From: Blastocystis sp. Blastoise
Taxonomy: Eukaryota > Protista > Bigyra: Opalinata
NCBI GenBank assembly: GCA_039096225.1
Contig: JBBPEB010000006.1
Location: 1,316,665-1,380,664, forward strand
Length of the DNA stretch: 64,000 nucleotides
Direction: 5' to 3'
The notes under the pieces were generated by a model, which was not told the origin of the DNA, did no database searches, and saw nothing but the letters and a program-made list of their open reading frames with translations. Below are positions 19,427 through 46,435 of this stretch, piece by piece (the first letter of the stretch is position 1; the number at the start of each line of letters is the position of its first letter). The position numbers and the translations under genes were made by a program.

Positions 19427-19473
19427 TAATAAATTGTATTATGCATTTTTTTTCTATTTTTATACTATTTATT

Positions 19474-19641: not shown

Positions 19642-19715
19642 ATTAATTTTTATAAATAACAAAACAAATTGTTTAGTTTTTTAAAATAATAATAAATAAA
19701 ATAAATTAAAATTAA

Positions 19716-24802: not shown

Positions 24803-24878
24803 TATTTATTGTATTAATTTAAAAATAATTATATAACAAAACAAATAATTAATTATGAAATAATAAAAGTTAAAATAA

Positions 24879-25916: not shown

Positions 25917-25969
25917 AACAAAACAATAAAATAATTATGGTTTATTTAACAAATTAAAATATAAAAAAA

Positions 25970-27007: not shown

Positions 27008-27076
27008 TTTATATGATTTTAATCAACAAAACAAAAAATTAATTAATGATAAGTTAATGATAAATATATGATTTTA

Positions 27077-27748: not shown

Positions 27749-27839
27749 TTTTTATTAAATAAATTAATTATGTATTGATAAACAAAACAATATTTATTAA
27801 ATTGTATAAATTGATAAAAGAAAATATTAGATAATTAAA

Positions 27840-29063
27840 TTAATTGGTTGCACCATCTCTAACAAATTTAACAAATATAAAATGAGCATATAAAGTATAA
27901 GTACCACTAGTAATATTTGCACCATTATATTCAGTTAATAAGGAGATATTAACTTCACAACCACTACGAGTATTGACATCAACAACACTTGAAATAGGGA
28001 ATATATAAATAGGTTGTTCATACCACTTTTCACCATTTAAAGGAGATTGAGGATGACTATTACATCTCCAAGTATTATAAAGCATAGCATTAGGAATAAT
28101 TTGTGATGGATTCGTTGTTTTATATGTAGTAGGGAAATCCGTCTTTGGTAAGATATTTTGACCACCAATTTGGAATTGACACATCTTCAATAATTCAGTC
28201 TTAATAGGAATCATACTCTTCTCTTGAGTTGTAAAATATAGCATACAGTAATCAGGTACGAAAACAACACTTCTATTGGATAAGAATTGTTGTGGAGTTG
28301 GTTTACCTGCTGTTGTGAATGTTTGTGAATAAACAGGTGTAGTAAATGCAGATATTTGACAATTATTAGGAATACATTTAATTAAAGCACGTGGATCATT
28401 ACCAAAATTAATATCATAAATTTGTTGAAGATGAATATAAACACGATCAAAAGTTAATGCAGTGATTTTAGTGGTTCCAGTAAATAGATTCTTTAAATAA
28501 TTTGTAACGAATTGCATCTTCAAAGATTTTACTTTAATAGCACAATCAAATGTACCAAGACCAGTAATAAGAGATAAAGGAATAATAACTTGAGCTTTAG
28601 TAGAACTTTGCATTCCAGAAATACTACTTAATGTTGTATTATATAAGCATTCTGTCATACTATACATAGATTTATCAATTTCATCTTTACTTAATTCTTT
28701 AATAGTAACAAATTTTCTTGCTTTACTGGATTCAATAGATGATTCAGAATAATTAATAAGAATATCTTGACCCGTAGGAGATACAAACGTAAGATCTGTA
28801 GTAATTTTATCAATAATACTATAGATATTAGAATGTTGTACAACAGAACTAGTTGTAGCTGCATTTGTTGTAATATTGAAATTCAGTTCTAAGAATGAAT
28901 TGCTGAAATCAATAAAAGGACTATCCACTGAATTATATAAGAATTCAAATGGATAAGGTTGATTTAATAAATCCTGACTTGTAGAAACTAGAATAGGAAT
29001 TTGTACAGGTTTAATAGTTTGATTTGCCTTTGAAGGTAAGAATTGTCTTGGGAATCCTTCCAT
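27840..29063 (-). CDS. Double jelly-roll major capsid protein 1 (407 aa)
   Basis: N-terminal FIDFSNSFLELNFNI motif typical of Polinton/PLV MCPs; beta-rich sequence, expected size and gene context. Confidence 0.82.
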   Translation of the reverse strand: MEGFPRQFLPSKANQTIKPVQIPILVSTSQDLLNQPYPFEFLYNSVDSPFIDFSNSFLELNFNITTNAATTSSVVQHSNIYSIIDKITTDLTFVSPTGQDILINYSESSIESSKARKFVTIKELSKDEIDKSMYSMTECLYNTTLSSISGMQSSTKAQVIIPLSLITGLGTFDCAIKVKSLKMQFVTNYLKNLFTGTTKITALTFDRVYIHLQQIYDINFGNDPRALIKCIPNNCQISAFTTPVYSQTFTTAGKPTPQQFLSNRSVVFVPDYCMLYFTTQEKSMIPIKTELLKMCQFQIGGQNILPKTDFPTTYKTTNPSQIIPNAMLYNTWRCNSHPQSPLNGEKWYEQPIYIFPISSVVDVNTRSGCEVNISLLTEYNGANITSGTYTLYAHFIFVKFVRDGATN

Positions 29064-29238
29064 TTTAATAATTATTGTTTATGTATTTTTTTAACAAAAT
29101 AAAAATAAAATAATAATAATATTTTATAATTATTAATTAATTTTAATTTTTATAACAAAACAAATGATTGTATTATAGAATAGAATAGAATTAATTAAAC
29201 AAGTTAACGTTAAGAATAGTAAGTAAGAAATATTAAAT

Positions 29239-30711
29239 TTAAATATCACGTACACTACGTACAGCAATCATATGTAATGTATAAGGATGCTTCTCATTTA
29301 GTTCAGTATTAATATGTTTATAAATACCAGCATGAGATGCTACACTATAAGAAGCACCAGTATCAGGTGTCCATATTTTAGTAGTTTCATTATATGTACA
29401 TGTATATCCATCAGGAACAGTGGATGAATCAGCATGTCCATATTCAATATCATGGACATCTAGATTACAATCAAAATTCATTTCTATACCACTATCTGAT
29501 TGGATATTCATTAATGCTTTAGTTGGAATAATATAAATAGGATGTTTAATCCATTCATCATATTTAAGAATAGTTTCAGGATTTGAATTATCAGCCCATA
29601 AACAATATAAATTTTTATTAGGACAAGATAAACTAGCAGTTTCTTCATTATTGAAGACATGACCTTTAGTAGTAAGATTATGATAATACATTTGAGTAGG
29701 GAATTCAGTTTGAGGGAACATTTGAACATCACCAATCAAACAACTTTGATATTTAGGCCATACAGATGGACTAGCTATATTACTAATAGTTGTTGAACTA
29801 TAACCATTTGTAAACCAGTATAATATATATTCAGGTATAAATGGTAAAGCTCTATTGATATTGAAATGATCACTAGTTATTCTTGTATTTTGATAATCGA
29901 CTTGAATACATGTAGGTATAGTTTTATATAATTCATTCGTTTGGAATTGAATATCTTTATAAGTCATTAAATTCATAGTAGCTGATTCCAATTCAAATGT
30001 CTTAAACCATTTTTCATCAGTTAGATGTAACCATTGTGTTGATAATTTAGCACCACCATTCTTGAAATAAATACTCATATTATTATCAATTAAAGATTCA
30101 ATTGTACTCGTTCTAAATAGCATATTGAAATGTTTAGTTAATATTAAAGAATCTCCATCAACACCTAAACCACTAATGAGATATAAAGGAATAGCAATAT
30201 GAATAGATTGTTTTGGATGTGCACGTATATAACGAATAGAATTCAATTCATAAGTATCTGCAGATAAATCTTCACCATACATAGATTTTTCTAAATCATT
30301 CTTACTGATATCTTTTAATAAAATCATCTTACGACCACGTGAAGCATGTGTACAATTTTCTTCATATTTCAAAGCACGATCAGATCCATCAGGTAATGTA
30401 TAAACCATTTCAACATCAGTGGAATCAATAATAGAATAAATATTAGCTTTCTGAACTAATTGATCCAAGAAATATTGACATAATTGATCATAAGTGAAAC
30501 TAACAGAAGTACCTGTTTCATCTAAATAAACAGAAACTGGTCCTTTTTTATCTGTAACAGTTGCTTTGACAGTAAGATCCAAATAGGATTGATTGAAATT
30601 GATATAAGTATTATCCACATTAGTCCAATGATATTGAAAGATATAAGGACTTGATAGAATATCAGTATCACTTTGAATAGGAATATTATCTTTAATTCTT
30701 AAGATTCTCAT
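29239..30711 (-). CDS. Double jelly-roll major capsid protein 2 (490 aa), paralogue of MCP1 with insertions
   Basis: YINFNQSYLDLTV, NIYSIID, IPLYLISGLG, FIPEYILYWFT, PQTEFPT and PIYIIP are collinear with MCP1 motifs. Confidence 0.8.
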   Translation of the reverse strand: MRILRIKDNIPIQSDTDILSSPYIFQYHWTNVDNTYINFNQSYLDLTVKATVTDKKGPVSVYLDETGTSVSFTYDQLCQYFLDQLVQKANIYSIIDSTDVEMVYTLPDGSDRALKYEENCTHASRGRKMILLKDISKNDLEKSMYGEDLSADTYELNSIRYIRAHPKQSIHIAIPLYLISGLGVDGDSLILTKHFNMLFRTSTIESLIDNNMSIYFKNGGAKLSTQWLHLTDEKWFKTFELESATMNLMTYKDIQFQTNELYKTIPTCIQVDYQNTRITSDHFNINRALPFIPEYILYWFTNGYSSTTISNIASPSVWPKYQSCLIGDVQMFPQTEFPTQMYYHNLTTKGHVFNNEETASLSCPNKNLYCLWADNSNPETILKYDEWIKHPIYIIPTKALMNIQSDSGIEMNFDCNLDVHDIEYGHADSSTVPDGYTCTYNETTKIWTPDTGASYSVASHAGIYKHINTELNEKHPYTLHMIAVRSVRDI

Positions 30712-30805
30712 ATTTCTTTTAATTTTAAATAAAATATTAATAAATAAATAAAATTAAATAATTTTTATAAATTAATATAAATTATTATTTTATAAATTAG
30801 AAAAT

Positions 30806-33244
30806 ATGGAACTTGATGATGATAATTATGAAGAACAGACTTCATTAGAAGAGAAGGATACTCGTATTAAAACACATGTAGTCCCTATTGATGTTCGTTG
30901 TATTGATAATCAATTCAATATACATTTATCGAATTCTATTGATATCACTAAAAATATCATTTCTTATATTGATCTTAATTTAATTGGTAGTGAAAGTGTG
31001 CCTCTATTTGATACTTTCACAAAAACACAAATATTCAAATATATAAATACTCGTGTTAATGGAAATAGTAAAGTATACACAATCACTTTAGATCAGAAAA
31101 ATTATTCAATTCCACAATTATTAGAACTATGTCATTTTGATGTATGTGATAGACCAGTAATAAAAGATTCTCCTGATATTGATCCTACTGTCAAAATTAA
31201 TGAATCCCCTACAATAACCATTGATAGAGATGATTGGTATTGTGAATTCACAATTGCCTATACTAGACGTGGCTTTTATTTCCCAAGAGGAACCTATACA
31301 GATATAGAATTTTGGTGGGTTGCTGTATGTTGTGTATCAGCTGTATGGAAAAACCCGGTAGGTAATCGAATAATGATGAAATATGATGATGATACTATAA
31401 CAATATATAGACCTGAAGTCACCACTTATAATATTCCTGTTACAACAACAGGAACTTATACATTTAATGGATTCTTTACTAATGGAAGTAATGATTATAA
31501 AACATATACTGTTTCAACACAAGATAGTGAAAATAAAATAACTTGTGAAGTAAATGGTGCTCATACATTTTATTTTAATTGGTCAAGTAGTAATATACTC
31601 AGTTTAGAAAGGCAATTATTCACTGGTTTGAAAATAAATAGCAATACATTGGTGTATACTACACCTCAAAAAGAAATTACATTAAATAGAATGAAAAGAA
31701 CAGTTACAGTTGAAGATAAATATAATAATATGATTATTAGACATATAAATAAATATGATGGTAATTATGACACTACATTCACTGTTCCTCCTGGTGACTA
31801 TACTGAAGATGAATTCTATGATTTATTAGAAAGTTCAATTAATAATACTATTAAAACAAATTATTTAAGTATATCAAAAGATGCTCAAACTATGGACGAT
31901 AAGGATGGATATATTTTATATTTATCATTTCAAGATATTGATTCAACATCATGGACATTTACAGCTATCGATATAGAACATTCATTATTTAAGTATCGTG
32001 GTGCTCTACATAATATACGTCCTGATCTGGTATATGATGAACAAGGATGTTTTGCTTGGCATGTATCTTATGGTAAACAATTATTACCAGATACACCTGT
32101 TGATTTGAATACATTAGATTTAGATGGTAATTATAAGTGTTATACTGATAGTTATCATATAGATTTTTCTCAAGCTCAAGAATTAGGTGAAATCCTAGGA
32201 TATAATAAATTAGGTCATGATGAAATTATTAATTATGGTATTCATAATATTGATAGTAGTCGTCCAAAAGGAATGTTAATAGCTCAATCGAATATAGTAG
32301 ATAATAGTCAGAATTCTTTATATTCATTCAATGTGAATAATTATAAAGGCAATAATGAATTTCATGATATTATGAATATTAATGTGTCTCCTTATTTGAA
32401 TACAATACAAGATATTACAATACGATATACTGATAAAAATAAACAATATGTGAATTTCAATAATAATTGTATTTTAAGAGGATTCTTAGAATTCTCAGAT
32501 ACAGTAGATACGATTCAACCAAGTGAAACTATTAAGAAATTATGTTTGAATTGTCAAACAGCAGACACACAATTCTATGCTGAATATCCTACATTGAATA
32601 TCCAAAATAAGATCTTAAAAGATATTATTATTCAAAATGATACAGATACAATCCAAGCAAATGCATCTAAATTATGTACTGGATATATAAATGGATCTTA
32701 TTATCCTACATTTAGTTTTCCTTTATCTGATAAATATGTTACTTATAGTAATATAAATTCTCCAATCACAATTGATCATCATATAGATTTAAGATTTGAT
32801 GAATTATTCAAAGGAAATATCATTTGTAATATATGTGAACCGAATGGTAGTGATATACGTTTCAAAGCTTATGATGAAGTATATTGTGATTTTAGTACGA
32901 GTAAGAATTTAATTTATGAATTGAAGAAAACCAATGTCTATGGATATCAATACTTAACGAATATACAAATTATATCAGTGTATGGTCAATCCACTGATTA
33001 CTTATATCCTATTTCATTAAGATGTTTTACTAATGAATATGAGAATAATATTCATGTTATTGATACTACAAATCTACCTTATTACTATTCTAATGGTATT
33101 AAATATGAAGGTATATCGAATAAGATCAATAAGAATGTTTATTATTGTAATCGTAAATTATTAAAGTTATTACCTCATGATAATATGTTCTTTATTACTT
33201 GTGATTATCCTTGTGTTGTTTTATTAACTATCTCTTATATATAA
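30806..33244 (+). CDS. Large penton-like / spike protein (812 aa) with repeated PxGxY-type modules
   Basis: LDQKNYSIPQL, FPRGTYTDIEF and VPPGDYTEDEF resemble FPAGNYTLEDF of the small penton; AQSNIVD...QDITIRYTDKNKQYVNF resembles penton C-terminal strands. Confidence 0.65.
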   Translation: MELDDDNYEEQTSLEEKDTRIKTHVVPIDVRCIDNQFNIHLSNSIDITKNIISYIDLNLIGSESVPLFDTFTKTQIFKYINTRVNGNSKVYTITLDQKNYSIPQLLELCHFDVCDRPVIKDSPDIDPTVKINESPTITIDRDDWYCEFTIAYTRRGFYFPRGTYTDIEFWWVAVCCVSAVWKNPVGNRIMMKYDDDTITIYRPEVTTYNIPVTTTGTYTFNGFFTNGSNDYKTYTVSTQDSENKITCEVNGAHTFYFNWSSSNILSLERQLFTGLKINSNTLVYTTPQKEITLNRMKRTVTVEDKYNNMIIRHINKYDGNYDTTFTVPPGDYTEDEFYDLLESSINNTIKTNYLSISKDAQTMDDKDGYILYLSFQDIDSTSWTFTAIDIEHSLFKYRGALHNIRPDLVYDEQGCFAWHVSYGKQLLPDTPVDLNTLDLDGNYKCYTDSYHIDFSQAQELGEILGYNKLGHDEIINYGIHNIDSSRPKGMLIAQSNIVDNSQNSLYSFNVNNYKGNNEFHDIMNINVSPYLNTIQDITIRYTDKNKQYVNFNNNCILRGFLEFSDTVDTIQPSETIKKLCLNCQTADTQFYAEYPTLNIQNKILKDIIIQNDTDTIQANASKLCTGYINGSYYPTFSFPLSDKYVTYSNINSPITIDHHIDLRFDELFKGNIICNICEPNGSDIRFKAYDEVYCDFSTSKNLIYELKKTNVYGYQYLTNIQIISVYGQSTDYLYPISLRCFTNEYENNIHVIDTTNLPYYYSNGIKYEGISNKINKNVYYCNRKLLKLLPHDNMFFITCDYPCVVLLTISYI

Positions 33245-33313
33245 ATATTTTAATTCATTTCATTTAAATTAAAAAATGTTTTGTTATATTATTCATTTAA
33301 AAATTATTAAAAA

Positions 33314-33736
33314 ATGGAGCCTAAATCTGTATCTGAATCCTTACATTCTTTATCAAGTACAAGTTCAACAAGTTCAGATAGTTCAACAACAACCACATTA
33401 TCAGAAGAAGAAATAGAAAAGAAAAATACTTTATTAGAATTTATTATAAAAGCTATAAAATGTTTATTTGAGAAATCAACTGAATTCTTTCAATTAATTG
33501 TTAAAAATATAGATATTCATTGTAATTGTTGTAATCCACAAACAAAGAAAGTCTATTATAAGACAATGAAAATACAACAAACTATTATAGAAGAAGAAGT
33601 CAAACATATATCAGAAGTCTTGAATGAATTAGAAGAAATTGATTCTAATCAAAATGAATCAATACAAGAATTAGCTGTTCAATTAATGAAATTAAATATA
33701 AGTGTTGATTCTATTGTTCAATCTCTTCATTTATAA
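33314..33736 (+). CDS. Viral hypothetical protein, 140 aa (Ser-rich N-terminus, CNCC, coiled coil)
   Basis: Intact ORF with its own 3' motif at 33771-33780. Confidence 0.75.
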   Translation: MEPKSVSESLHSLSSTSSTSSDSSTTTTLSEEEIEKKNTLLEFIIKAIKCLFEKSTEFFQLIVKNIDIHCNCCNPQTKKVYYKTMKIQQTIIEEEVKHISEVLNELEEIDSNQNESIQELAVQLMKLNISVDSIVQSLHL

Positions 33737-33803
33737 TTCTATGAAATGTTATAAAATATTAATAATAAATTTGTTTTGTTTATAAATAATTTAATTTTTA
33801 ATA

Positions 33804-35600
33804 ATGCAATCAACAGGTTATTCAGATAAAGATTGTGAAGAATTCTTTACAAATTGTATAGATCAATTATTACATTGGAAGAAAATACAATTATCAACAA
33901 GTATAAATTGGAAGAAATGGATCAAGACAATATGTAAGAAATTTCGTAATGAAGAACGAATTCAAATAGATGATATGGAAGAACCGTTCTTTTGTGTAGA
34001 AGTGTTAACAGATCCATTTCAATTTCAAAATGTTATGCAACATACACAAACAGAAGCTCCTGGACAACAAGGTGGATTATCCAATACTACTGTAGCTAAT
34101 TATATGCAAATGATTACTTATATAATGAAGAATATATCTATTTGTACAGATGATGAAGATATCATTAATTATAAAGCATTTACTCCACAAAATATAAAGA
34201 AATGGGAACATTTATGGGGTTCTTTACAAATTGATGCTACTTATTCAAGACATTATGAAATCACTCAGAAAATTATTAATTGTGAAGCTGATTGGGGAGA
34301 AATCATTAATATCACCAAAAAGAATTATTTAGAGAATCCTAATGATTTATATTATGTGAATAGTTATTTATTAGTTTTAACTTATGATACATTATGTGCT
34401 CGTAATGATTATAATGATTGTGTAATCTATACTCGTGGTCAACAAATTCCTTTATCCTTAAGAAGAACAACTAATTATATTGATTTAAATACTTTGACTA
34501 TTCATGTGAATGATACAAAGAATCGATTTGAAATTGGTAAGAATGAATATCCTACTTATCAATATTTATCAGAAGAATATTTGAATGTCTTAGCTAGATC
34601 CTTACGTTTATTTCCAAGACATTATTTATTTGTTACTGAGAATGGTGGTAAAGTACGTGATTTGAAATTTGGTGATGAATATATAAAACCCCATTTAGGC
34701 TGGATTTATAAAACACAACAGAATAATTCTTTAATTAATGGTTGTGATATTATAAGACATTTATTTGCTCAATATTATTATAGATTATCAAGAGAAGCAC
34801 AATTCCAACATAATGATTCAGAACACGAATCTAAAGGTGTAGAACTCTTTGAAAATTCGATTATGAAGATGTTACATAGTCAATCAACACATATGGAAAA
34901 TTATATATCTCCTTATTTATCTTCTCATTCAACTAAATTGCAAGATTTAGATAATAAAACAAGAACATTTCATATTGATATGAATAATATTACTTATACA
35001 AGAGAAATTAATCAATTGAATAAATTATTATTTTTATGTAAACGATTTAATGATCGTATAGAACAATATGAAGAAGACTATGAAGATGTATTTGGTAAAG
35101 AGAATTTCAATATGAAATCAGAATCCATATTAAGTAGTCTAGAACAATATTCATCAGATAATGATACTATAATGATTACATTAAGATATTATAAAGATCT
35201 ATTAAAGCATCATTATCCAGATAAAACAGATTTAGAAAATGAATTACCTGTAGGATGTTCATTAGAATCTGAAGAAGTTCCAGAGAATTCTAGAGATCGT
35301 TATAATCGTTTTATACGTAATAAACAATTATTACCTGATCATTTACATAATAATACAACGGATTCAGAATTAACGAATACTCAAGCATCTCTTATGCAAC
35401 AGAATACTCAAGATGAAAACTCTACACCTATAGTTATGAATAATTCAGATACTTATGCATTACGTAGTCTTTCTACTATGCCTCCTTTAGAGCCTATTCA
35501 TCGTGGTCATGGTTTATGTAGAAAACATAAAGGTAATGCATTCTTTAAAGTCAAAGTCCCTAAAAAACATTTTCATGGAATTCAATTTAAATTTTATTAA
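33804..35600 (+). CDS. Tyrosine recombinase 1 (598 aa, long C-terminal extension)
   Basis: Catalytic residues in order: CARNDY (R), VNDTKN (K), HYLF, DIIRHLF (R), and MLHSQSTHMENY (H...Y). Confidence 0.75.
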   Translation: MQSTGYSDKDCEEFFTNCIDQLLHWKKIQLSTSINWKKWIKTICKKFRNEERIQIDDMEEPFFCVEVLTDPFQFQNVMQHTQTEAPGQQGGLSNTTVANYMQMITYIMKNISICTDDEDIINYKAFTPQNIKKWEHLWGSLQIDATYSRHYEITQKIINCEADWGEIINITKKNYLENPNDLYYVNSYLLVLTYDTLCARNDYNDCVIYTRGQQIPLSLRRTTNYIDLNTLTIHVNDTKNRFEIGKNEYPTYQYLSEEYLNVLARSLRLFPRHYLFVTENGGKVRDLKFGDEYIKPHLGWIYKTQQNNSLINGCDIIRHLFAQYYYRLSREAQFQHNDSEHESKGVELFENSIMKMLHSQSTHMENYISPYLSSHSTKLQDLDNKTRTFHIDMNNITYTREINQLNKLLFLCKRFNDRIEQYEEDYEDVFGKENFNMKSESILSSLEQYSSDNDTIMITLRYYKDLLKHHYPDKTDLENELPVGCSLESEEVPENSRDRYNRFIRNKQLLPDHLHNNTTDSELTNTQASLMQQNTQDENSTPIVMNNSDTYALRSLSTMPPLEPIHRGHGLCRKHKGNAFFKVKVPKKHFHGIQFKFY

Positions 35601-35644
35601 TTTTAAAACAAAACAACTTTTTATAGTAAAAAATAAATATATAT

Positions 35645-38600
35645 TTAATTTGGTATAGCATATAAAGTATTATCTATTAAAATTCGTTTTGTTGATGACG
35701 TATTATGATATTGATCTTCACTATAAACAATTTCTTCTTTTTTAGATAAACAATTGGATAAACAGAATAAATCTGTATCTACACATTCATTATAAGTATT
35801 ATCAATCATTAAACCACAAATACCAATAGCATTCCCTCCCTTATAAAAATTTGAAGTATGTTTTCTATGAATATTCACAATATCTATAGAATTAAATGTA
35901 TCTTTACTACTTAAACAACCAAATAAAGCATTTGTAAATTTATCTAAATCTTTCTTAATCGTAAATTGATTATTATTATTCACTTTCTTATAACTATTAA
36001 AAATATCTTCAATAGTAACTACATTCAAATAATAAGGATCTATAGTAATATGGTTATCAACAAAAGATTTCAAATCATATCCTTCTGTACTACGATCAAA
36101 GAATCGTTTCTTACATTCACTTATATGATATTCATTATCTAATTCATGCATATCTAATTGCATACTAGAATAGAAATAATTACTTACTAGATAACTAAAG
36201 ATAATTGAACGATTCTGATAGAATTTATCGGATAGAGTATAATCCATTTCATAATGATTTGGTTTCAATCTCTTTTCTACTGTCTGTTTACGTTTCGGTA
36301 AATTATGATCTACATAATCTTCATATAAATTAGCATTACCAGGAGGGAAATAACGACAACATGAAGGTAAGAAACACACTCTTCTTTCAATAGGACCAGC
36401 ATTCACAGCTGTAGGTTGGATATTACTTGTCATAAATAAAGTACCCGTGAAATGAACTTTTGTAAATATATTACTGAATAATTTACGAGCACTAGCACCT
36501 TCTTTCTTTTCTGCTATTTCTTTAAAGACTTTAGAAGAGAATGGATTGAATGTTTTCTTTCTACCAGTAACATCTTCTTCTATTAATTCATTCATATAAT
36601 ACATAGTCTTATTAGACATATCTACAATCTTAGGAGCTATAGATGTTTCTTCTAAATTATCTGGATTTACTATAATACATTGATTACTACCTACAATACG
36701 AGAAATTAAATCAGTTGTTATTGTTTTACCATTACTACCTGTACTACCATATAATATATAAGAAACTGTTTTCTGAGTATTGACATAGAAAGCAGTGGTT
36801 AGGATACGTAACATAATACTTTCATATTTCTTATCGAATTCACAATATCTTGCAATATGTTGTTCAAATAATTGGATAATATCTTTCTGTTCATTATTAA
36901 TATTCCAACTTACATTAAATTCAGTATCAATTAATAAATCTTCAAACACCATATCTTCTTTATGATATGGTTGGATATAATATTGTCTAGGATCTTCTTC
37001 TGTTGATTCTTTTGGATATAAATAACCAAGTTGTGTATAGATAACACGTTCTTTATGAACCATATACGTATCTAAATATTCTTTATAAGATTTACCATAA
37101 GTCTTCAAATAACGATTCAACCATTCTTTATAATGATATTCATTAGTAACAGAAGCAGACATTATTTTATCAACTATTTTTTGATGTTGTTCATTCTCTT
37201 TGGAATATAATCTTGATAGTTTGAATTTCTCTACAATCGATTTCATAAATGTAGTTATTTTGGTTTCAAAGAAATTAATATCATAATTATTCTTACAACG
37301 TCTTAAGATATTATATTCATCAAATGTATATAAGATAAAATTATCTTTATCTAATATAATAGATACAATTTCATTAAATTCTAATAATTGAAATAACATA
37401 ACTAATGTTTGTGAATCTACAAGATTAAAGGATTGAATACATTCTAAAATAGACATAAATATGAAATCATTATCATCATCTTTATTAAATAATTTATTAT
37501 CCATTAATATCTTCAAAATATAATTATTCGATAAATGAGTAGGATCAACTTGTATATGATTCCATGTAGATTCAATTACATCATCACTTCGATCATGACC
37601 ATAACGTAATGAATAATTTTTAAATAATTCTAATCCTCTTGTTGTATTACAAATCTGTTTTGCTGCACAACATAATTTATACCAAGTATTATGGGATTCA
37701 AAATAATTCATATCTTCAATAGAACCAATCAATAATAAATATCGTTCTAATAAAGCTTCTTTAGATGCTGTAGTATCCAATATAGTATCTGTAGAAATCA
37801 ACATAGGAATATCTTTAATATCTTGTATAGAACATAATATAGTACGTGAACAATTATTTAATCTTGCATAATAACGTTTATAACGTGAATATTGTTTTAA
37901 TTTAGAAAAGATAATAGGATTAATAATATCACTTATAAGATCATCTTCATTCTTATAATTCAATAATGTTTTGAAATAATAATGTTCATCGATTTTGCCT
38001 TCTATTTTCTTCCATGATTTATTGGTATATTCTTCATATAATTTATAAGTAGATGGGGAATTATCTTTACTACAACCAAGAAACATACAACCATTATTCT
38101 TTCTGGGTTTACCAATAACATTATAATCAATGAATTCTTTTATATCTAAATTATTCATTTTAAATAAATCAACCAATTTGGTATTCAGAATCATACTATT
38201 ATATAAGAAAAATAAATAATCACCATTTACAAACCAATTTGTATATATATGAATTCCCCATGAATAATGTATTTCATTATGAACTGTCTTCTTATTCACT
38301 TCTTTCTTTGTATACACAAGCGAAATAAATTCTTGATTATAATAATGAATACAATGATTACACATTTCTTCTATAAATTCATGAATAAAAGAATCTGTTA
38401 GAAAAGAAAAATCATTTGATATTTGGTGATAATCTAAATCAAACCATAATCTTCTATAATTAGTTGATGTATTACAAGGAGTACAATCAATATAATGTAA
38501 TAATTCTTTTTGATTTTGGTAATTAGTAAATAGACTTTTATAAAATGGTAATGGATTTGGTATAATAATTTCACTATGATTATCTTTTGAGTTATCATGA

Positions 38601-38647
38601 TTAAAGGAACCAAAAGTATAAACAAAATGAATTTGTGAATTTTCCAT
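35645..38647 (-). CDS. D5-like primase-helicase (AEP primase + PriCT-2 + SF3 helicase), 1000 aa
   Basis: AEP motifs LWFDLDY and GIHIY; PriCT-2-like TWYKLCCA...FKNYS; Walker A YGSTGSNGKT, Walker B YYMNE, motif C FMTSN, and ERR finger. Confidence 0.9.
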   Translation of the reverse strand: MENSQIHFVYTFGSFNHDNSKDNHSEIIIPNPLPFYKSLFTNYQNQKELLHYIDCTPCNTSTNYRRLWFDLDYHQISNDFSFLTDSFIHEFIEEMCNHCIHYYNQEFISLVYTKKEVNKKTVHNEIHYSWGIHIYTNWFVNGDYLFFLYNSMILNTKLVDLFKMNNLDIKEFIDYNVIGKPRKNNGCMFLGCSKDNSPSTYKLYEEYTNKSWKKIEGKIDEHYYFKTLLNYKNEDDLISDIINPIIFSKLKQYSRYKRYYARLNNCSRTILCSIQDIKDIPMLISTDTILDTTASKEALLERYLLLIGSIEDMNYFESHNTWYKLCCAAKQICNTTRGLELFKNYSLRYGHDRSDDVIESTWNHIQVDPTHLSNNYILKILMDNKLFNKDDDNDFIFMSILECIQSFNLVDSQTLVMLFQLLEFNEIVSIILDKDNFILYTFDEYNILRRCKNNYDINFFETKITTFMKSIVEKFKLSRLYSKENEQHQKIVDKIMSASVTNEYHYKEWLNRYLKTYGKSYKEYLDTYMVHKERVIYTQLGYLYPKESTEEDPRQYYIQPYHKEDMVFEDLLIDTEFNVSWNINNEQKDIIQLFEQHIARYCEFDKKYESIMLRILTTAFYVNTQKTVSYILYGSTGSNGKTITTDLISRIVGSNQCIIVNPDNLEETSIAPKIVDMSNKTMYYMNELIEEDVTGRKKTFNPFSSKVFKEIAEKKEGASARKLFSNIFTKVHFTGTLFMTSNIQPTAVNAGPIERRVCFLPSCCRYFPPGNANLYEDYVDHNLPKRKQTVEKRLKPNHYEMDYTLSDKFYQNRSIIFSYLVSNYFYSSMQLDMHELDNEYHISECKKRFFDRSTEGYDLKSFVDNHITIDPYYLNVVTIEDIFNSYKKVNNNNQFTIKKDLDKFTNALFGCLSSKDTFNSIDIVNIHRKHTSNFYKGGNAIGICGLMIDNTYNECVDTDLFCLSNCLSKKEEIVYSEDQYHNTSSTKRILIDNTLYAIPN

Positions 38648-38733
38648 GATTATTTGACTTATAAATAATGAAAATAATTATAATACAACATTTAAAACAA
38701 ATAATATATTAAAGATTCTAGAAGTCAGTTTTA

Positions 38734-38863
38734 GAAGCTTCTAGAACCTTCTAGAACATTCAGGAACATTCTAGAACATTCTATAATAGTAAATATTACT
38801 TTATATTTTTAAATGTTCTAGAACCTTCGAGAACCTTCGAGAACCTTCTAGAACCTTCTAGAA
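38734..38863. promoter_or_regulatory. Two HSE-like arrays (10 + 10 units) upstream of the primase-helicase
   Basis: 38734-38781 and 38816-38863 show perfect 5-bp-phased alternation of GAA and TTC. Confidence 0.65.
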
Positions 38864-38973
38864 CATCCTTTTTATACTTTAGTGTTTTAAATGTATATAC
38901 AATAAACAAAACAATTTTCAATGATTTTTTACAAGTTTATAAGTAAAACTAGAAAAATAAACAAGAAAATAAA

Positions 38974-39597
38974 TTAAATTTCAATTGGTTCTTGACTATT
39001 AATATATGTACATGAATGAGGCCATCCATTTTTATCATATAAAATACCATCCCAGAAATACATTTGTTTTGAAGGATCTCTTTTAATCTTGTTAATACTC
39101 TTAGCATGAACAACTTCATAAGAATAAACTTTACCTTTTTCATCATAAAGAAATCCATCTTCCATATGGAATTTCATAATATCAAAATCATCATCTTTAG
39201 AATTCGAATGTTCTTTAGAATCTTCAGAACATAAAATAGTAGTTCTATCACTTTCTAAAAGATCTTCAGTATTGATAATATCTTGAATATCTTGTTCTTC
39301 ATTAAGTTGTTGAGTATAAATATCAGCAGCGAATTCTTCATAATCTTCAAGACCTTTAATAACCGCGTTTATACGTTTTAAAGCTGATCTATAGTTTTCG
39401 ACTTCGAAAGAAGCAAGACGTTCTTTAGATTTTGCAATACCCAATAGATTCTTTTCTCTATTCAATTGAGACTGATGTAAATCAATATCACGAAGAACAT
39501 TCTTATGAACTTCAACAGCCTTCTTAGAATTCTTTAGAAGTTCCATACGAACAGTTTGAAGACATTTACGGGAATCAGCAGAAAGATTAAATTGCAT
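38974..39597 (-). CDS. Viral hypothetical coiled-coil protein (~207 aa from ATG 39597)
   Basis: Intact ORF, 4-unit HSE at 39709-39726 upstream, 3' motif at 38905-38914. Confidence 0.75.
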   Translation of the reverse strand: MQFNLSADSRKCLQTVRMELLKNSKKAVEVHKNVLRDIDLHQSQLNREKNLLGIAKSKERLASFEVENYRSALKRINAVIKGLEDYEEFAADIYTQQLNEEQDIQDIINTEDLLESDRTTILCSEDSKEHSNSKDDDFDIMKFHMEDGFLYDEKGKVYSYEVVHAKSINKIKRDPSKQMYFWDGILYDKNGWPHSCTYINSQEPIEI

Positions 39598-39995
39598 TAT
39601 AATCGCGAATATCGTTACAGAGAGAAAATTTGTATTTATCAAAATGAAATAAATAATACATTTAAATGGAATATTAAATATTCTAGGAGACAGTCTAGAA
39701 TCTCTATGGAATGTTCTAGAAGGTTCATTTGATTGGCTAATTTTGTCGACTTAGCATTTTTTATTTGTGTTTCAATGACGAGTATAGTTGGCATCTGTAA
39801 TCTGATTGGATACAAAAATTAGTAAAACACAATTAGACGATGACGACGATGTGTCATACGAAATAAGTTATTTTATTGGCTTATTTTCCAGCTGGAAGCA
39901 ATAGGCTTTTGTTAGCAACTGAAATGAAGAACTGTACACTAAAAATAGTATATTTAATATATTGTATAAAAATACTTTTGAAGGTTTAAATAATC

Positions 39996-40523
39996 ATGGA
40001 AATTCCTGATAGTCTTTCTGCCAGTTTATCCCCTTTCGGTCAAGCCATGATATCCCCCTTGTTGAATCCATTTGAAAATAGTGTTTCTGCAAATCCTATG
40101 GCTTTACCCAATGATAATGATTTCTGTTTTAATTCGCGTGACGAAATCATATTTGAAGATCCACCTCAAGAAATTCATCCAATCAATGATGTTTACGTAT
40201 CTAAAAATCCAGATAGATATCATTCGGTTAACAATCAACCAATACAATTTCAAGATCAAGTAAATACAAATCCTGATAAGCAAGCATTATTATTTACAAA
40301 TGAGGAGTTAACAAATATATCCAGTCAATTCGAATCTTTATTTCAAACTATGGAAACGGCTGATAATATATTAAATAGTATTTATTGTACTGTTGATCAT
40401 TTAAAAACAAAGATTGAAAGTCAGAAACAAGATTTGAAACAGATTCATGATGATTCTAAAGAAATTGTTTCATTATTATCCGAATATTCTATTCCTTCTA
40501 TGTCTGAAATATTTGATCATTAA
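39996..40523 (+). CDS. Viral hypothetical protein, 175 aa (disordered N-terminus, C-terminal coiled coil)
   Basis: Intact ORF; 3' motif at 40547-40556. Confidence 0.75.
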   Translation: MEIPDSLSASLSPFGQAMISPLLNPFENSVSANPMALPNDNDFCFNSRDEIIFEDPPQEIHPINDVYVSKNPDRYHSVNNQPIQFQDQVNTNPDKQALLFTNEELTNISSQFESLFQTMETADNILNSIYCTVDHLKTKIESQKQDLKQIHDDSKEIVSLLSEYSIPSMSEIFDH

Positions 40524-40722
40524 TTATTTTTATTTAATTAATTATTTTGTTTTGTTTATTTTTTTTTTAAATTAATTACACAAAGTTTAAATGGAGAATA
40601 GAATAGTTTCAAATAGAATTCTTGAATGGTCTAATGGATCTATTAAAGAAATATGTAACTACAGTATCATGGTTCGATTCCGTTAAAATGTTTCCATTAG
40701 ATTATTCAAGTGTTCTTTTTTT

Positions 40723-40770
40723 TTCTAGAACCTTCTCGAACATTCTAGAACCTTCTCGAACCTTCTGGAA
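40723..40770. promoter_or_regulatory. HSE-like array (10 units) upstream of the SSB-like gene
   Basis: TTCtaGAAccTTCtcGAAcaTTCtaGAAccTTCtcGAAccTTCtgGAA. Confidence 0.65.
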
Positions 40771-40846
40771 AATTGATTCATTTGAAAAGAATATCGTAAA
40801 ATATTAGTATTAAAATACTTATATTTTTACTAAATACTTAACTAAA

Positions 40847-41440
40847 ATGTCTTCAACTGAATTTAAGAAACCTACTATTCTTGATACTTCTAACTTTAAT
40901 TTACAATGGGATGACACCAAAGAAAATGCTGTTCTTTTAAATAATAATCATCGTGTATGTATTTCTACTGATGCTACACCATGTTTATTTGGTTATATTG
41001 TTACACGTGATAAATGGACTTTAATAACGATTGAAGATGATAATCAAGTATTCTTAACTGCTTATAAAGAACTTTATCGTAAATTATGTGAATTATGTCC
41101 TGATGGTGATATTGTTAATTTTGTACGTATGGATAATGGTAAATATAAGATTACAATTAAAGTACCTATTAATGCATCGAAGAATGTTACTATTGATATT
41201 ACTGATAAAAGAGATAAGAAGATTAATATCGGTAAAGATCCTAAGTTAACTTACGAAGAAATACGTGAAAAGTATATTCCACCAAATACGTTATGTAAAG
41301 TATTATTTACAATACATGGTATTCATCGTTATAATAACAAGTATTATATTGGTTTATATGCACGTTCTATTAAAGTATTCGATAAATCTACGAAGAATAC
41401 TAACAGCAATGATACTATTATTGATTTAACTAAATTATAA
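40847..41440 (+). CDS. Probable OB-fold single-stranded DNA-binding protein (T7 gp2.5-like / NCLDV type)
   Basis: Size and the C-terminal pattern IPPNTLCKVLFTIHGIHRYNNKYYIGLYARSIKV fit this family; it lies near the helicase. Confidence 0.6.
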   Translation: MSSTEFKKPTILDTSNFNLQWDDTKENAVLLNNNHRVCISTDATPCLFGYIVTRDKWTLITIEDDNQVFLTAYKELYRKLCELCPDGDIVNFVRMDNGKYKITIKVPINASKNVTIDITDKRDKKINIGKDPKLTYEEIREKYIPPNTLCKVLFTIHGIHRYNNKYYIGLYARSIKVFDKSTKNTNSNDTIIDLTKL

Positions 41441-41515
41441 ATTTTTAATGTTAAATTTATTTTTTATTAATATATTTGTTTTGTTTATAAATAATTTTAT
41501 AATTGAAATAAAAAA

Positions 41516-43144
41516 ATGCAAAGTTGTATCTTAGGAATGCCAAGTCCTGGTACTTTTGGTATGAATTTAATTTCAACTGGAAAAGAATATAGGCGATATA
41601 ATACACAACCATTACATAAAATGGATCAATATAATCCAATATTTCATGAAATAGGTCCAAATTCATCTATGCCTGTGTCTACTTTAGAAAGTAAAGAAAT
41701 ACATGATGGTAAAGAAGATGATTATGTAGATCGTTCTAAAACATTTGGTAAAGATGCTGTTCCACAAGGAAATGGTGCTTTAATTCGTGCTAGAGCAGCA
41801 GGTAAAGGTGTAATGAAAGCAGCTGGTCCAGAAGAAGATAAAATAGATGGTGAAGATCGTCAATATAAAGTATTAAATCCATGTAAACCAAGACGTAAAT
41901 CTGGTAGAGGAATTATTCCAAATAAATCAGAAATCAATAAATTAGAGAATAATCAAGGTTCTGGTATTGGTGATGCAATTAAAAATAAAGTAAAAGATAT
42001 GTATCAACGAAATGTATTAGATATAAGAGATGCTATTGTAGATAAAAAAGCTAATAGAAAAGCTCGTGATGCATTAGCTATTTTAACTCAATATGTTGGT
42101 GATGGTCATCATGATCTTGATGATGAATTCAAAAGATTCTATGAACATAAAATAAAACGTGGTGGAAAGATTCCTATATCTGTTGCTTCAGCAATTATGA
42201 ATGCAATTAAAAATAAGAAAATGATTAAGAATCCAAAATTAAGAAGAATGTTAAGACCCTCTATTATACCAAAATATATAGATTTAGATTCAGCTCAAAG
42301 TGGTGATGGTATATTAAGAGTAAAAAGAGGTGGTGGATTCTGGAGCGGATTAATGGATTATGCACCAGCTCTATTAGGTGTAGTTGATAAAGGTATGGAT
42401 TCTTTTGCTAAAGGTAGAAAAGCTTATTATGATACACATTTGGCACAACAATCAAGTGAATTAAATGATATGGAATTTGAAATGGAAAAATTAAAACGTC
42501 AACAAGCATTAAATGAAATGAAAAAGCAAATAGGTTCAGGAAATACAATAAATAAAATGTTTGAAGGATATTATGATGTAGCTGATGAAATGCAAGATGC
42601 TCTTGATGAAGATGATAGACTACATCCACAACCCGTTGTTCAACCTCCACCACCTCCACAACAACAAGTTGATCGACCTCCTCAATCTCAACCTCCTCAA
42701 CCTTATAAACCCATGTCTCGTGATGAACAAAGTTATTATTATAAGATTTATGGTTTCCCTCAAAATGATAAAGAAAAAGTCGATAGAAAATGGAAAGAAG
42801 ATGAAAGGGATAAACGAATAGCTGCAAGAAGAGCTAAACGTAGAGGTTATGGTGGTCGAGTTAAATTAAGTAAAGCAGAATTCTTAGAACGAATGAGAAG
42901 AGGAAAAGAAGCTAAAAAGAAAAGAGGTGGTGATTTGAATCCATTAGTATCATTTTATACAGATTTTATAATACCTGCAGGAGTGGCACGAAAAAAACGT
43001 AAAATCCAAGAGGCTGATTTAAAACAATTACAAATTATAAAACAGAAAAGAGATAATAATGAAACATTAAATGCAGGTGACGAATTGTTTTGGAAAAAAA
43101 AGAAATATATGTTATCAAAAAACTCAGGGGAGGGGATCTGGTAA
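41516..43144 (+). CDS. Basic core polyprotein candidate (542 aa) with ~11 GxG/GG putative protease sites
   Basis: K/R-rich; contains QGNGA, AGKGV, SGRGI, QGSGI, KRGGK, SGDGI, KRGGGF, IGSGN, GYGGR, KRGGD and SGEGI; overlaps the protease ORF. Confidence 0.75.
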   Translation: MQSCILGMPSPGTFGMNLISTGKEYRRYNTQPLHKMDQYNPIFHEIGPNSSMPVSTLESKEIHDGKEDDYVDRSKTFGKDAVPQGNGALIRARAAGKGVMKAAGPEEDKIDGEDRQYKVLNPCKPRRKSGRGIIPNKSEINKLENNQGSGIGDAIKNKVKDMYQRNVLDIRDAIVDKKANRKARDALAILTQYVGDGHHDLDDEFKRFYEHKIKRGGKIPISVASAIMNAIKNKKMIKNPKLRRMLRPSIIPKYIDLDSAQSGDGILRVKRGGGFWSGLMDYAPALLGVVDKGMDSFAKGRKAYYDTHLAQQSSELNDMEFEMEKLKRQQALNEMKKQIGSGNTINKMFEGYYDVADEMQDALDEDDRLHPQPVVQPPPPPQQQVDRPPQSQPPQPYKPMSRDEQSYYYKIYGFPQNDKEKVDRKWKEDERDKRIAARRAKRRGYGGRVKLSKAEFLERMRRGKEAKKKRGGDLNPLVSFYTDFIIPAGVARKKRKIQEADLKQLQIIKQKRDNNETLNAGDELFWKKKKYMLSKNSGEGIW

Positions 43145-43710
43145 AGAGTAAAGATGAAAAACTTATTCAAAATTCAATGAATTGTGATAATCCTATTATA
43201 TCTGATAAAACTCGTCATGTTACTCCTAGATCCCCTGATAATTTCAAACAAACTCTATCTCAATATTGTAATATACCAAATTCTTTAATATCTCAATTAT
43301 ATAATTATGCTTATTTAAATAAACCTACCTCTTCTGTTGCTTGTGATCGTGCTGAAAATGTTATGAAACAATTAAATAAAACGAATTCTCAATCTTATAA
43401 TTATTATAATAGTTATGATGATTTTGAACAAAATATAGATCAAGATCAAACTAAATTTAATATGATCTTTCATGAAAGTCCTAGTGATCCTTATAATGGT
43501 CATTTTGAAGCTGTTATTTATAATGGTAATAAAAATATAGAACACTATTCATCATTAGGAAATAAACCTACTTTTTCAAAATCATTTATTCAAAATCATA
43601 ATATTCAATATAATCCTATTCAACACCAAAAAACTACAAGTAATGCAAATGGTTGCTTTTATTATTCTTTACTTTATTTACTTTCTAATGGAAATCTTAT
43701 GCCTTGTTAA
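43090..43710 (+). CDS. Adenain-like (clan CE) maturation cysteine protease, in the -1 frame relative to the upstream ORF (first in-frame ATG at 43177)
   Basis: GHFEAVIY (catalytic H), IEHYSSLG (cf. YFDSxG), and QHQKTTSNANGCFYYSLLYL (oxyanion Q, catalytic C). Confidence 0.8.
   Translation: MEKKEIYVIKKLRGGDLVKSKDEKLIQNSMNCDNPIISDKTRHVTPRSPDNFKQTLSQYCNIPNSLISQLYNYAYLNKPTSSVACDRAENVMKQLNKTNSQSYNYYNSYDDFEQNIDQDQTKFNMIFHESPSDPYNGHFEAVIYNGNKNIEHYSSLGNKPTFSKSFIQNHNIQYNPIQHQKTTSNANGCFYYSLLYLLSNGNLMPC
43117..43238 (+). other. Putative -1 programmed ribosomal frameshift signal
   Basis: In-frame A AAA AAC (43117-43123), a 7-nt spacer, and stems 43131-43141/43226-43236 and 43146-43151/43220-43225. Confidence 0.7.
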
Positions 43711-43796
43711 AACATTCTAGAATATTCTAGAATCTTTAATTTATTATATTAATATTTTGTATAATTAATTTGTTTTGTTTATTATTTAATACTATA

Positions 43797-43952
43797 ATGA
43801 CAAAGAAACGATTTGGCAATTACTACTTAGATCGTAGTGCAGAAACTTTAGAGAATGTAAATGAAATACTGTCAGTTATTGAAATTGTTCTTATTATTAT
43901 ATATATTTTACTTTACTTTTATATGTCCAAGAAACGTTCTAGAACATTCTAG
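43797..43952 (+). CDS. Small single-pass membrane protein (51 aa)
   Basis: ATG at 43797; ILSVIEIVLIIIYILLYFYM followed by SKKR; HSE upstream and 3' motif downstream. Confidence 0.5.
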   Translation: MTKKRFGNYYLDRSAETLENVNEILSVIEIVLIIIYILLYFYMSKKRSRTF

Positions 43953-44054
43953 AACATTCATTTTGAACTGGCTCTATTTGTAGAATCTTTAATTTATTAT
44001 ATTAGTGTTTTGTATAATTAATTTGTTTTGTTTAATCATTGGTTAATTTAAATA

Positions 44055-44429
44055 ATGAACAAGAAATATCTTAGTTATTCTTATTTTTGTCGTGTGATGA
44101 AGAATCTAAAAGAAGAAGGAATTAAATCTAAAAAGAATGAAATAGCAAATCTATTAGAACAATTTTTAAATAACAATAACAGCAAAAATCTTAGTGATTT
44201 GCAATTGAGTTACTGTAGAAACATGTTACTTTATATAGATGATCCTGTGATTCATCAACGTCTTGAAATGCTATTGGATAAACAATATATGAAGAATGAG
44301 AATCAATATCAAGATGATAAGAATCTTATTCAACCCAATAATATGTTTATGCCAACTATGAAAAGTAATCAACAACAAAATCAATATCAAAATAATAATA
44401 ATAATCTATCTTTCTTACCTTTCAATTAA
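44055..44429 (+). CDS. Viral hypothetical protein, 124 aa (N/Q-rich tail)
   Basis: Intact ORF, HSE at 43937-43959, 3' motif variant at 44453-44462. Confidence 0.65.
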   Translation: MNKKYLSYSYFCRVMKNLKEEGIKSKKNEIANLLEQFLNNNNSKNLSDLQLSYCRNMLLYIDDPVIHQRLEMLLDKQYMKNENQYQDDKNLIQPNNMFMPTMKSNQQQNQYQNNNNNLSFLPFN

Positions 44430-44504
44430 TTTTTATATCCTTTTATTACTAGTTGTTTAGTTATATTCAAAATTTAAAAACAAAACAAACATAAAAACAT
44501 AAAA

Positions 44505-45440
44505 TTATTCAATTAATTTTTTAAATAAATTATTATTTTCTAAAGATACATAAGAATTAATATGTGTATAATCATTATGACATAAAGCAGAAGCAGAATT
44601 TTCTATATCTTGGAATGTATTGGTTGTAGTTGTAGCATATAATTTTCTTAATGCATTAATGGTTAATTTTGGATGGATTTGTTTTAAATGTTTATTCACA
44701 AACCAATCAAATGCTTTAGTAGTAAATCCAGTTCTAACAGAAGATTCAAATATAAATTTACGATTTGGATTTCTTTTTAAGAGTAATTCTAGATCTTCAA
44801 TCAATTCTTTTGGTGCATCTAATTGAATTGTAGAGTATTTACCAGCAGTTTTATAATCATTTAATAGAATAGAACCAGTATGTTTCTCTTTATCATAAAC
44901 AATATAATTCTTATGAATAGCTGGATCAATAGTATCTTCTGGAGTTAGAATGAATAATTGAGCATAATCAGCACGAGCAGGAGGAAGATAGGAGTAAAAA
45001 TCTAATATTAATCGTAATGGGTTATAATTTTCTAATTTATCGTGATATTCATGTAAATATGGAGTCGTAATACCATCTTTAATAAGATCTTGAATCAAAG
45101 TACGTTTCTTATTATCCAGATATTTTTCATACATAGAATTGATAATCACATAAAATTCACACCATTTATTTAAAATACCTTCTTTATTTAATGAAGAAAC
45201 ATTACGTATAATAAATAAAATCAATTCACATAACGATTTCATTGGACTAATTTTGATTTTACGTTCATTTACCATATAATCCATGAATGAATAAGGATTC
45301 TTTAAGAATTCTGAGAACTTTTTAAATGGTAATGGGAAAATATATAAATTGAAATAATTGGTTAAACGTTTTTTCCAAATATCAGAATAATTTGAATTCT
45401 GTATAACCAAAAGATACTTGTCATAATTCGTATTTTTCAT
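44505..45440 (-). CDS. Tyrosine recombinase 2 (~311 aa from ATG 45440)
   Basis: LPPARADY (R), LNDYKTAGKY (K), FIF, INALRKLYAT (R) and LCHNDYTHINSY (H...Y), the pattern of PLV/virophage/NCLDV-type tyrosine recombinases. Confidence 0.85.
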   Translation of the reverse strand: MKNTNYDKYLLVIQNSNYSDIWKKRLTNYFNLYIFPLPFKKFSEFLKNPYSFMDYMVNERKIKISPMKSLCELILFIIRNVSSLNKEGILNKWCEFYVIINSMYEKYLDNKKRTLIQDLIKDGITTPYLHEYHDKLENYNPLRLILDFYSYLPPARADYAQLFILTPEDTIDPAIHKNYIVYDKEKHTGSILLNDYKTAGKYSTIQLDAPKELIEDLELLLKRNPNRKFIFESSVRTGFTTKAFDWFVNKHLKQIHPKLTINALRKLYATTTTNTFQDIENSASALCHNDYTHINSYVSLENNNLFKKLIE

Positions 45441-45528
45441 TGTTTTTCTCAAGTAGAATCTTTAAAACTTCTATTTTGAAAAGAATAATACATAAGAAAA
45501 TCAAAATAAAATATCTAAGATTCTCATG

Positions 45529-45576
45529 TTCTCGAATGTTCTAGAAGTTTCGAGAATGTTCTAGAATATTCTAGAA
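45529..45576. promoter_or_regulatory. HSE-like array (10 units) upstream of tyrosine recombinase 2
   Basis: Alternating TTC/GAA at 5-bp phase, ~90 nt upstream of ATG 45440. Confidence 0.65.
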
Positions 45577-46435
45577 AATTGATATACATGCCGCCACCTA
45601 AAACCACTGGAACATAATTAGTTTCCCCAGTTTCCCCATAATAATTGTGTTTTTGTGTTCCAAAATCCCTCATTTTTACATTTTTAAGCAATTTGATTGG
45701 ACAATTCACGATGACGCATCCTATTTCCATAACGGTCACCCTTGTTTCCAAAAGTCTCTCGTTATAATCGTGGTGGTGGGTACATCTTTTTACAAGACCA
45801 CACCACCACCAGCTTTTCTTTCACCCACTATAAATACATACCTTGATCACTTTACTCTTTTTATATAAATTTTTTTATGATTATCATTACTTTTTATATT
45901 ATTTATTGATCACTATACATACATTTTTATTTTTATATATTCCCGTGATTATTTTTATTATTTCTTTTTTAGATAGAACCATCCATTTCATCTTTTCTCT
46001 ATATAAAGGGAGGGTCGGGGTGTGTGTTTATTTAGCACATTCTGTGCTTCTTTTCGTATTTCTTTCTGTATTCCCGTGATTATTTTACTCACTTTACCAA
46101 CGATGGAGTCATTTTCCATGAATATTTCCTGTAAAGGGGAGGGTTGGACTGTGTATTTTATTTCTTTTATGATTACTATGAGTTTCTCCTTGATCACTTT
46201 ACGTTTCACGTTGGAATCGGAACACAAATAAATTAAAAATAAATAAACATGGGAAAAAATAAATACACACACACACTACCCTACACTCCCATGGTTATTT
46301 TACTTCAGAAATGTTATTAATTCTTCCGTCGAGAACAAAAAGGGGGGATGACTTCCCCGCTTATGGCTGCGCGCGTCGCGCAGACTCTATGCGGGGTTTG
46401 CATACCCCCTTCTGCAGTTCGAAGAACGGAAGAAT
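45539..46435 (-). repeat. Right terminal inverted repeat (897 bp)
   Basis: Reverse complement of 18531-19426. Confidence 0.97.

Follow-up and report, generated by a model that had tools for sequence, protein, structure and literature searches.

A probable −1 ribosomal frameshift between a predicted core polyprotein and its protease in a virus integrated in Blastocystis DNA

The window analysed here, a stretch of 64,000 nucleotides from Blastocystis sp. Blastoise, contains an element that we interpret as a Polinton-like (MELD) virus integrated into the DNA of a gut protist, and in this element a predicted core polyprotein is followed, in the −1 frame, by a predicted maturation protease. We consider it likely that the protease is reached by −1 ribosomal frameshifting at the heptamer A AAA AAC, as a C-terminal domain of the polyprotein, and the signal is real and probably functional. 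A first-pass annotation of this DNA had proposed frameshifting, and this reading is upheld by fused homologues, by conservation upstream of ATG 43177 and by identical core ends in all 21 database copies.

Results

Reading frames and slippery site

The two ORFs meet at the following features.

41516..43144, plus strand, 0 frame: predicted core polyprotein, 542 aa, basic and punctuated by Gly-Gly
43096..43102, plus strand: a further, non-conserved heptamer, A AAA AAG, within a run of eight A's (A8)
43117..43123, plus strand: slippery heptamer A AAA AAC, coding for Ser-Lys-Asn, where the −1 shift is predicted
43124..43130, plus strand: spacer TCAGGGG, 7 nt
43123..43710, plus strand: product read in the −1 frame past the shift, 195 aa long, with an LRGG/DL linker and a predicted clan CE cysteine protease
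43501-03 and 43654-56, plus strand: His and Cys codons of the protease, whose internal ATG is at 43177

At the core end the 0 frame reads TCA AAA AAC TCA GGG GAG GGG ATC TGG TAA, the stop codon (43142-44) standing six codons past the in-frame heptamer. Starting at 43081, the −1 frame remains open as far as its stop at 43710, with LRGGDL after the heptamer and no ATG before 43177. The protease ORF had been placed in the −1 frame, overlapping the end of the 542-aa ORF, and this is confirmed; the coordinates and register of the in-frame heptamer and its 7-nt spacer were also verified. A one-base backward step at the heptamer gives a 731-aa core-protease architecture. A_AAA_AAC has been ranked among the shiftiest eukaryotic heptamers (PMC5009743).

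The 17 viral ORFs contain 27 in-frame heptamers in 6,668 codons. Only at 43117 and 43096 does the −1 frame stay open for more than 15 codons, and the heptamer at 43117 is followed by the strongest downstream fold of the 27 (z −3.55, the next being −1.86). The heptamer at 43096, which had been put forward as a second one, is present but not conserved; as the main site it was rejected, its downstream fold having a z of +0.62 and its sequence being broken in nine of the 21 copies of the core protein. It is probably incidental. The features of a canonical −1 frameshift site are found at 43117: an X XXY YYZ heptamer; a spacer of 5-9 nt followed by a stable predicted structure; and a −1 frame that is open, conserved and without a start of its own.

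Predicted RNA stem

43131..43157, plus strand: 5' side of the predicted stem (43131-41, 43146-51 and 43153-57), including the 0-frame stop at 43142-44
43212..43236, plus strand: 3' side of the predicted stem (43226-36, 43220-25 and 43212-16), encoding VTPRSP

The arms of the 11-bp helix, AGGGGATCTGG (43131-43141) and CTAGATCCCCT (43226-43236), pair as had been described, and the GAGTAA/TTACTC extension appears in the MFE fold. A further inner extension, ATGA/TCAT, holds only in part: a helix of the GATGA/TCGTC type forms, but 43153-43157 pairs with 43212-43216 and not with TCAT. The stem closes a loop of about 60 nt. Folding the region downstream of the heptamer (43124-43245), a check that the first-pass annotation had called for, gave −31.2 kcal/mol with a z of −2.61, equalled by 2 of 200 shuffles; the z values obtained range from −2.6 to −3.6. 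When 600 nt of context were included, ten of the 11 helix pairs formed with a probability of at least 0.96 and the first A-U pair with 0.72. Synonymous resampling after 43146, with the protein held, equalled the fold in 6 of 1000 trials, and the stem arms contain rare codons (GGG, 2%; CTG, 1%; TCC, 8%). The 11-bp helix ranks second of the 1242 perfect helices of at least 9 bp in the element, and the corresponding 110-nt folding segment ranks only seventh to eighth by total MFE among distinct places. No compact hairpin or pseudoknot was found within 80 nt downstream: the best folds of the first 40-80 nt reach −1.5 to −6.9 kcal/mol, and the best loop-to-3' helix of at least 6 bp reaches −4.5.

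Core polyprotein and its database copies

Four GG sites bound segments of the core ORF, two of which have a pI above 11; the ORF contains KRGGDL, with its GG at residue 471. From the GG sites and high-pI segments, which fit such a role, we infer that it is a DNA-binding core precursor.

Database copies of this ORF number 21 and fall into four clusters, and near-identical copies are named by their source as Blastocystis sp. Blastoise proteins. Compared as proteins (identity 82-97% or more), all 21 end in MLSKNSGEGIW and so keep, at the protein level, the Ser-Lys-Asn codons of the heptamer. Just upstream, 12 read WKKKKY and nine WKEKKY; allelic blocks are seen upstream, yet the end is invariant. 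The copies are not independent, as they are closely related. An A-run error splitting a single ORF was looked for in them, as had been advised, and because all 21 proteins end alike, a one-off sequencing error at the core end is unlikely. Pfam and PDB sequence searches named neither the core nor the protease.

Protease domain

The downstream ORF is predicted to be a clan CE protease of the Ulp1/adenain fold. This prediction comes from the model of a homologue (P0005, 61% identical, pLDDT 66), which in VIA-align matches the folds of Ulp1/SENP, ASFV pS273R and the adenovirus protease; the best rows were CE-clan folds (Z 9.5, rmsd 2.9, 118 aligned), with the adenovirus protease at Z 7.7. A Foldseek search of the PDB with the same model gave no match at E 0.001 or better. 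Among viral proteins, the top match is the protease of a MELD virus (E 6.6e-5). The family does not vary at His, Gln and Cys, and the usual Asp position is Ser (YSSLG) in all seven aligned family sequences. As this replacement of the usual catalytic Asp is family-wide, the protease activity is only putative. Adenain-type enzymes cleave after Gly-Gly, and adenain and ASFV pS273R trim core proteins at GG sites.

Fused and split relatives

When 1.84 billion representatives were searched with a profile, six matches were obtained, four of them with E below 1e-30, and three of these four best matches are longer and have core-like sequence ahead of the protease. P0043 (Logan) and P0049 (ENA), from two different sources, encode core and protease in one frame: they have EFLERMRRGKEAK in common with the window core and then continue in frame through P[S/T]GG-TQFSKDEDKIQDAM. 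The 533-aa fusions P0045, P0051 and P0052 are homologous from the core N-terminus (E 6e-22) and are eukaryotic gene models, in which predicted introns could be hidden. A search with the core C-terminus gave seven matches and added two proteins. One, P0055 (617 aa, the only one read of a cluster of 30), aligns from the core N-terminus (E 5e-27), has EFLERMRRGKEAK and continues into the protease; Atlas scores for its core part are at most 0.80. The other, P0056 (likewise the representative alone, of a cluster of 20), is a core that ends without a protease and may be partial. Its end, T-L-K plus five residues, is compatible with U UUA AAR, a compatibility with slippery sequence found for about 10% of its dipeptides; possibly, U UUA AAR stands in that lineage at the register that A AAA AAC occupies here.

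Of the 13 residues before Met 43177, five to eight match in each of six homologues, and the Met itself is replaced by Leu in P0044 and is absent in P0045 too. Given this conservation and the homologues fused in frame, the native form of the protease is, to judge by protein sequences, most likely a domain at the C-terminus of the core polyprotein. Under the host name, 21 core copies are annotated, but no protease of this family encoded on its own was found there. The window transframe and four joined homologues also have in common a Gly at position −15. LRGGDL had been proposed as a release site resembling the upstream KRGGDL. Both motifs are present, but in P0043, P0049 and P0044 the GG stands one residue away, and P0055 has GA in its place; release at LRGG is therefore plausible from sequence and not invariant.

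Other families look split. P0044 and P0050 are near-identical copies of a sister family whose models cross the junction by different joins, which suggests a break bridged by gene prediction. When compatibility with the stem was assessed from proteins, a comparison that is not independent of ancestry, P0044 was found to keep VTPRSP with 17 of 17 pairs possible, vs 13 of 17 in the fused P0043 and P0049. In the P0001 and P0002 clusters, none of the 21 members exceeds 205 aa, and the gene calls often place an M (MKESRDEQ) at the register of CTG 43138. This M may be a true ATG, which fits reinitiation, or a TTG; a TTG would pair with the 3' arm as altered by an Arg-to-Lys substitution (3 of 4 pairs, vs 2 of 4). 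No DNA locus of a relative was found in viral_contigs, metagenome_contigs, genome_contigs or phages; the window itself did match the protease pattern. At least two further diverged families (P0045; P0044/P0050) occur under the same host name, one of them with a 533-aa fusion.

Gene-end motif

43770..43779, plus strand: TTGTTTTGTT gene-end motif after the protease, with a putative 3'-end role

Of the 17 tabulated viral genes, 13 have TGTTTTGTT at most 75 nt past their end, the protease among them (43770); between core and protease the motif does not occur. The motif had been said to follow almost every gene except the core; however, three other genes also have none within 75 nt (in one it is about 80 nt away), and its absence after the core is thus suggestive only. 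The divergent junction 30711-30806 does not contain the motif, and this speaks for a role at 3' ends. The 45 nt before ATG 43177 have a GC content of 31%, vs 2-13% in 14 of 16 other genes. A single mRNA for core and protease is likely. A motif related to TGTTTTGTT marks transcript ends in human Blastocystis and, in the part of the source that bears on it, is not enriched in the host genes of tortoise isolates (PMC10690189).

Throughout the virus (19430-45540), TTGTTTTGTT follows most genes and resembles the transcript-end element of human Blastocystis.

The integrated element

18531..46435: integrated element, 27.9 kb, with terminal inverted repeats of about 900 bp
18531..19426: left terminal inverted repeat, complementary to the right one at 98-100%
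45539..46435: right terminal inverted repeat
27840..29063, minus strand: one of two paralogous genes, for a predicted major capsid protein; low-confidence model

Low-complexity AT-rich DNA surrounds the element, whose length and repeats fall within the range of Polinton-like/MELD viruses (15-40 kb with terminal inverted repeats). The model of the capsid-like protein (pLDDT 43) best matches a MELD virus protein (E 2.8e-7) and also the mavirus MCP (E 3.5e-3), and Atlas scores it 0.97 to viral clusters, one of them with 10% DJR-like members; on this modelling, the protein would place the element among Polinton-like/MELD viruses. The ORF at 25970-27007 has P-loop family matches below the cut-off (FtsK, E 0.049), and a recombinase-like ORF has a weak Pfam match (E 0.08). 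No PolB-like ORF was recognised in the element, and an Rfam search of 18500-46500 returned 0 matches.

Several other parts of the element were noted. The capsid-like paralogues, 27840-29063 and 29239-30711 (both minus strand), adjoin each other and are 33% identical. About 2.7 kb inside the virus (21212-23950) contain no ORF of note and no Rfam match, and include a tandem repeat (489 bp x 2.5 copies at 22070-23292, 75% matches). Just upstream of the ORF starting at 21206 lies a short GC-rich tract (21225-21275, minus strand); the 110-nt segment around it folds at −36.4 kcal/mol, rank 2 for stability in the element. That ORF (19716-21206, minus strand, 496 aa) has a start that, on visual comparison, looks like the N-terminal part of the 542-aa core (..ATGHEYRNY.. 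vs ..STGKEYRRY..), and is possibly a second core-type precursor. The strongest perfect helix of the element is an 18-bp inverted repeat in the intergenic gap 40621-40710; TTCTAGAA-type units lie beside it and again near 38730-38870, 43715-43740, 43935-43990 and 45526-45589.

Discussion

On the likely reading, in which the RNA fold and the clan CE fold are predictions, slippage at a minority level, co-packaging and Gly-Gly release may be inferred to proceed as follows: a predicted single mRNA would carry the core and protease ORFs; the predicted stem, 7 nt past 43117-43123, would pause ribosomes at A AAA AAC; a minority of these would slip by −1 and make the 731-aa core-protease fusion, while the majority would terminate at 43144 and make the 542-aa core protein; the fusion would package the protease together with the core; cleavage after Gly-Gly (LRGG/DL) would free a 191-aa protease; and the freed protease would then cut the core at the four GG sites of the latter. 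The earlier suggestion that frameshifting sets the dosage of the protease has to be narrowed: as relatives are fused in frame, dosage control is not essential for the family and is an option rather than a necessity. On balance, we lean towards the view that this one junction has changed, in several lineages, between fusion in frame and a −1 frameshift of the retrovirus type, the protease being the tail of a Gag-like core.

The protease might instead have a separate start, either the near-cognate CTG 43138 or ATG 43177, used by reinitiation or on a transcript of its own. The latter is only 33 nt past the core stop, and the P0001/P0002 calls begin with MKESRDEQ at the register of the former, where an ATG would overlap the upstream stop. 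However, CTG 43138 and its surroundings are buried in the predicted stem; the residues before ATG 43177 are conserved, with the Met missing from P0044 and P0045; the AT-rich leader and the gene-end motif are both absent between the ORFs; and the M of the relatives may be a TTG, which pairs better. We therefore regard separate initiation as unlikely. Frames could also be joined by an alternatively spliced intron, such as 43087-43127 (41 nt, GTTTTG...CTCAG), giving ...ELGGDLVK...; 15 GT-AG pairs at most 200 nt apart link the frames without a stop, the sister-family models P0044 and P0050 seem to bridge the junction by joins, and host intron length varies in tortoise isolates (PMC10690189). Splicing appears quite unlikely all the same, as those joins differ in near-identical copies and so resemble a prediction artefact, none of the 21 core-family models is joined, and a stem exactly 7 nt past the heptamer is left unexplained. 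The best-looking intron, 43141-43229 (89 nt), makes a TGA at its junction and was discarded.

A fixed loss of one base in a once-fused gene would leave the family protease-defective and complemented by fused relatives in the host. Such relatives exist, one family (P0045) under the same host name, the break is at an A run and the 21 copies could have a single founder; yet the protease ORF is intact with its His, Gln and Cys, the end is invariant across copies despite allelic blocks upstream, P0056 and the P0001/P0002 clusters look split too, and the stem requires rare codons, all of which make a fixed defect very unlikely. A systematic homopolymer error of long-read assembly might split a single ORF, and one more A in the run would yield the same product. 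Such an error would, however, need to recur in every one of the 21 copies, across many contigs, and farther upstream in this ORF longer A runs have left all these frames intact; this is highly improbable. Short-read polishing is described in a paper on Blastocystis assemblies (PMC10690189) and may apply to this window. Of three sequencing runs compared, one gave short contigs that match parts of the two ORFs, and none covered 43086-43179. Finally, RNA polymerase could add one A to some transcripts by slipping on the A8 run (43094-43101), which is within the overlap, or on the A6 run. The A8 run is interrupted in the nine copies with WKEKKY, an A6 run is short for polymerase slippage, and a downstream RNA stem at ribosomal spacing would not be required; slippage of this kind is improbable in the extreme.

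The predicted ribosomal frameshifting at A AAA AAC resembles the gag-pro switch of MMTV, in which the heptamer AAAAAAC and the 7-nt spacer are identical to those of the window (PMC3835772) and a structural polyprotein is likewise followed by a maturation protease in the −1 frame. The site had been called a signal of the MMTV gag-pro type, and this applies to the heptamer and spacer but not to the structure: MMTV has a compact pseudoknot with stems of 5 and 7 bp, whereas the window has a predicted long-range stem-loop, and no compact H-type pseudoknot of less than 35 nt was seen at its site. Moreover, MMTV is an RNA virus with an aspartic protease, and the window has a predicted clan CE cysteine protease in a dsDNA virus. 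The likeness is one of analogy, with no homology.

The first-pass annotation knew of no such frameshift in Polinton-like viruses or virophages. For Polinton-like viruses, and in the literature covered, this stands for a core-protease junction, but not for the category: for adintoviruses, Penton and Hexon-Adenain (Hexain) −1 frameshifts have been predicted (Buck et al. preprint, PMC11071296). There, too, a Polinton-like virus is predicted to slip by −1 into an adenain-type protease; the upstream partner is a capsid protein, whereas in the window it is a predicted core polyprotein with in-frame fused homologues. In the part of the preprint concerned, the claim takes one sentence, derives from KnotInFrame and cites no fused relatives (PMC11071296). 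In the freely accessible article texts covered, the adintovirus prediction was the one precedent; neither a fusion of core and protease nor a frameshift between them was found described for Polinton-like viruses, and the word frameshift is absent from two 2026 PLV surveys. The core-protease junction would thus be new relative to the adintovirus prediction, while the category itself had already been predicted. According to a review, the use of frameshifting is known from relatively few DNA viruses of eukaryotes (PMC8310308).

The predicted fold, the His-Gln-Cys order and the Gly-Gly sites in the putative substrate resemble those of adenain, ASFV pS273R, poxvirus I7L and the MELD virus protease. 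In contrast to these enzymes, the window protease would be a C-terminal domain of its putative substrate and has Ser at the usual Asp position. Adenain, ASFV pS273R, poxvirus I7L and the MELD virus protease are encoded by stand-alone genes.

The Blastocystis MELD virus is likewise a midsize linear dsDNA virus from Blastocystis datasets (Starrett et al. 2021, PMC8502044). It has PolB and an rve integrase, whereas the element described here has a recombinase-like ORF and no recognisable PolB-like ORF; no frameshift is described for it in the relevant part of that paper.

The signal is about 130 nt long and, if the site is real, could be one reason why the protease of such viruses gets overlooked. 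The fused and split relatives would then constitute a natural experiment. If true, a canonical gag-pro switch of heptamer plus stem would have evolved convergently in a eukaryotic dsDNA virus, which would thereby have arrived at the retroviral way of dosing and packaging a maturation protease.
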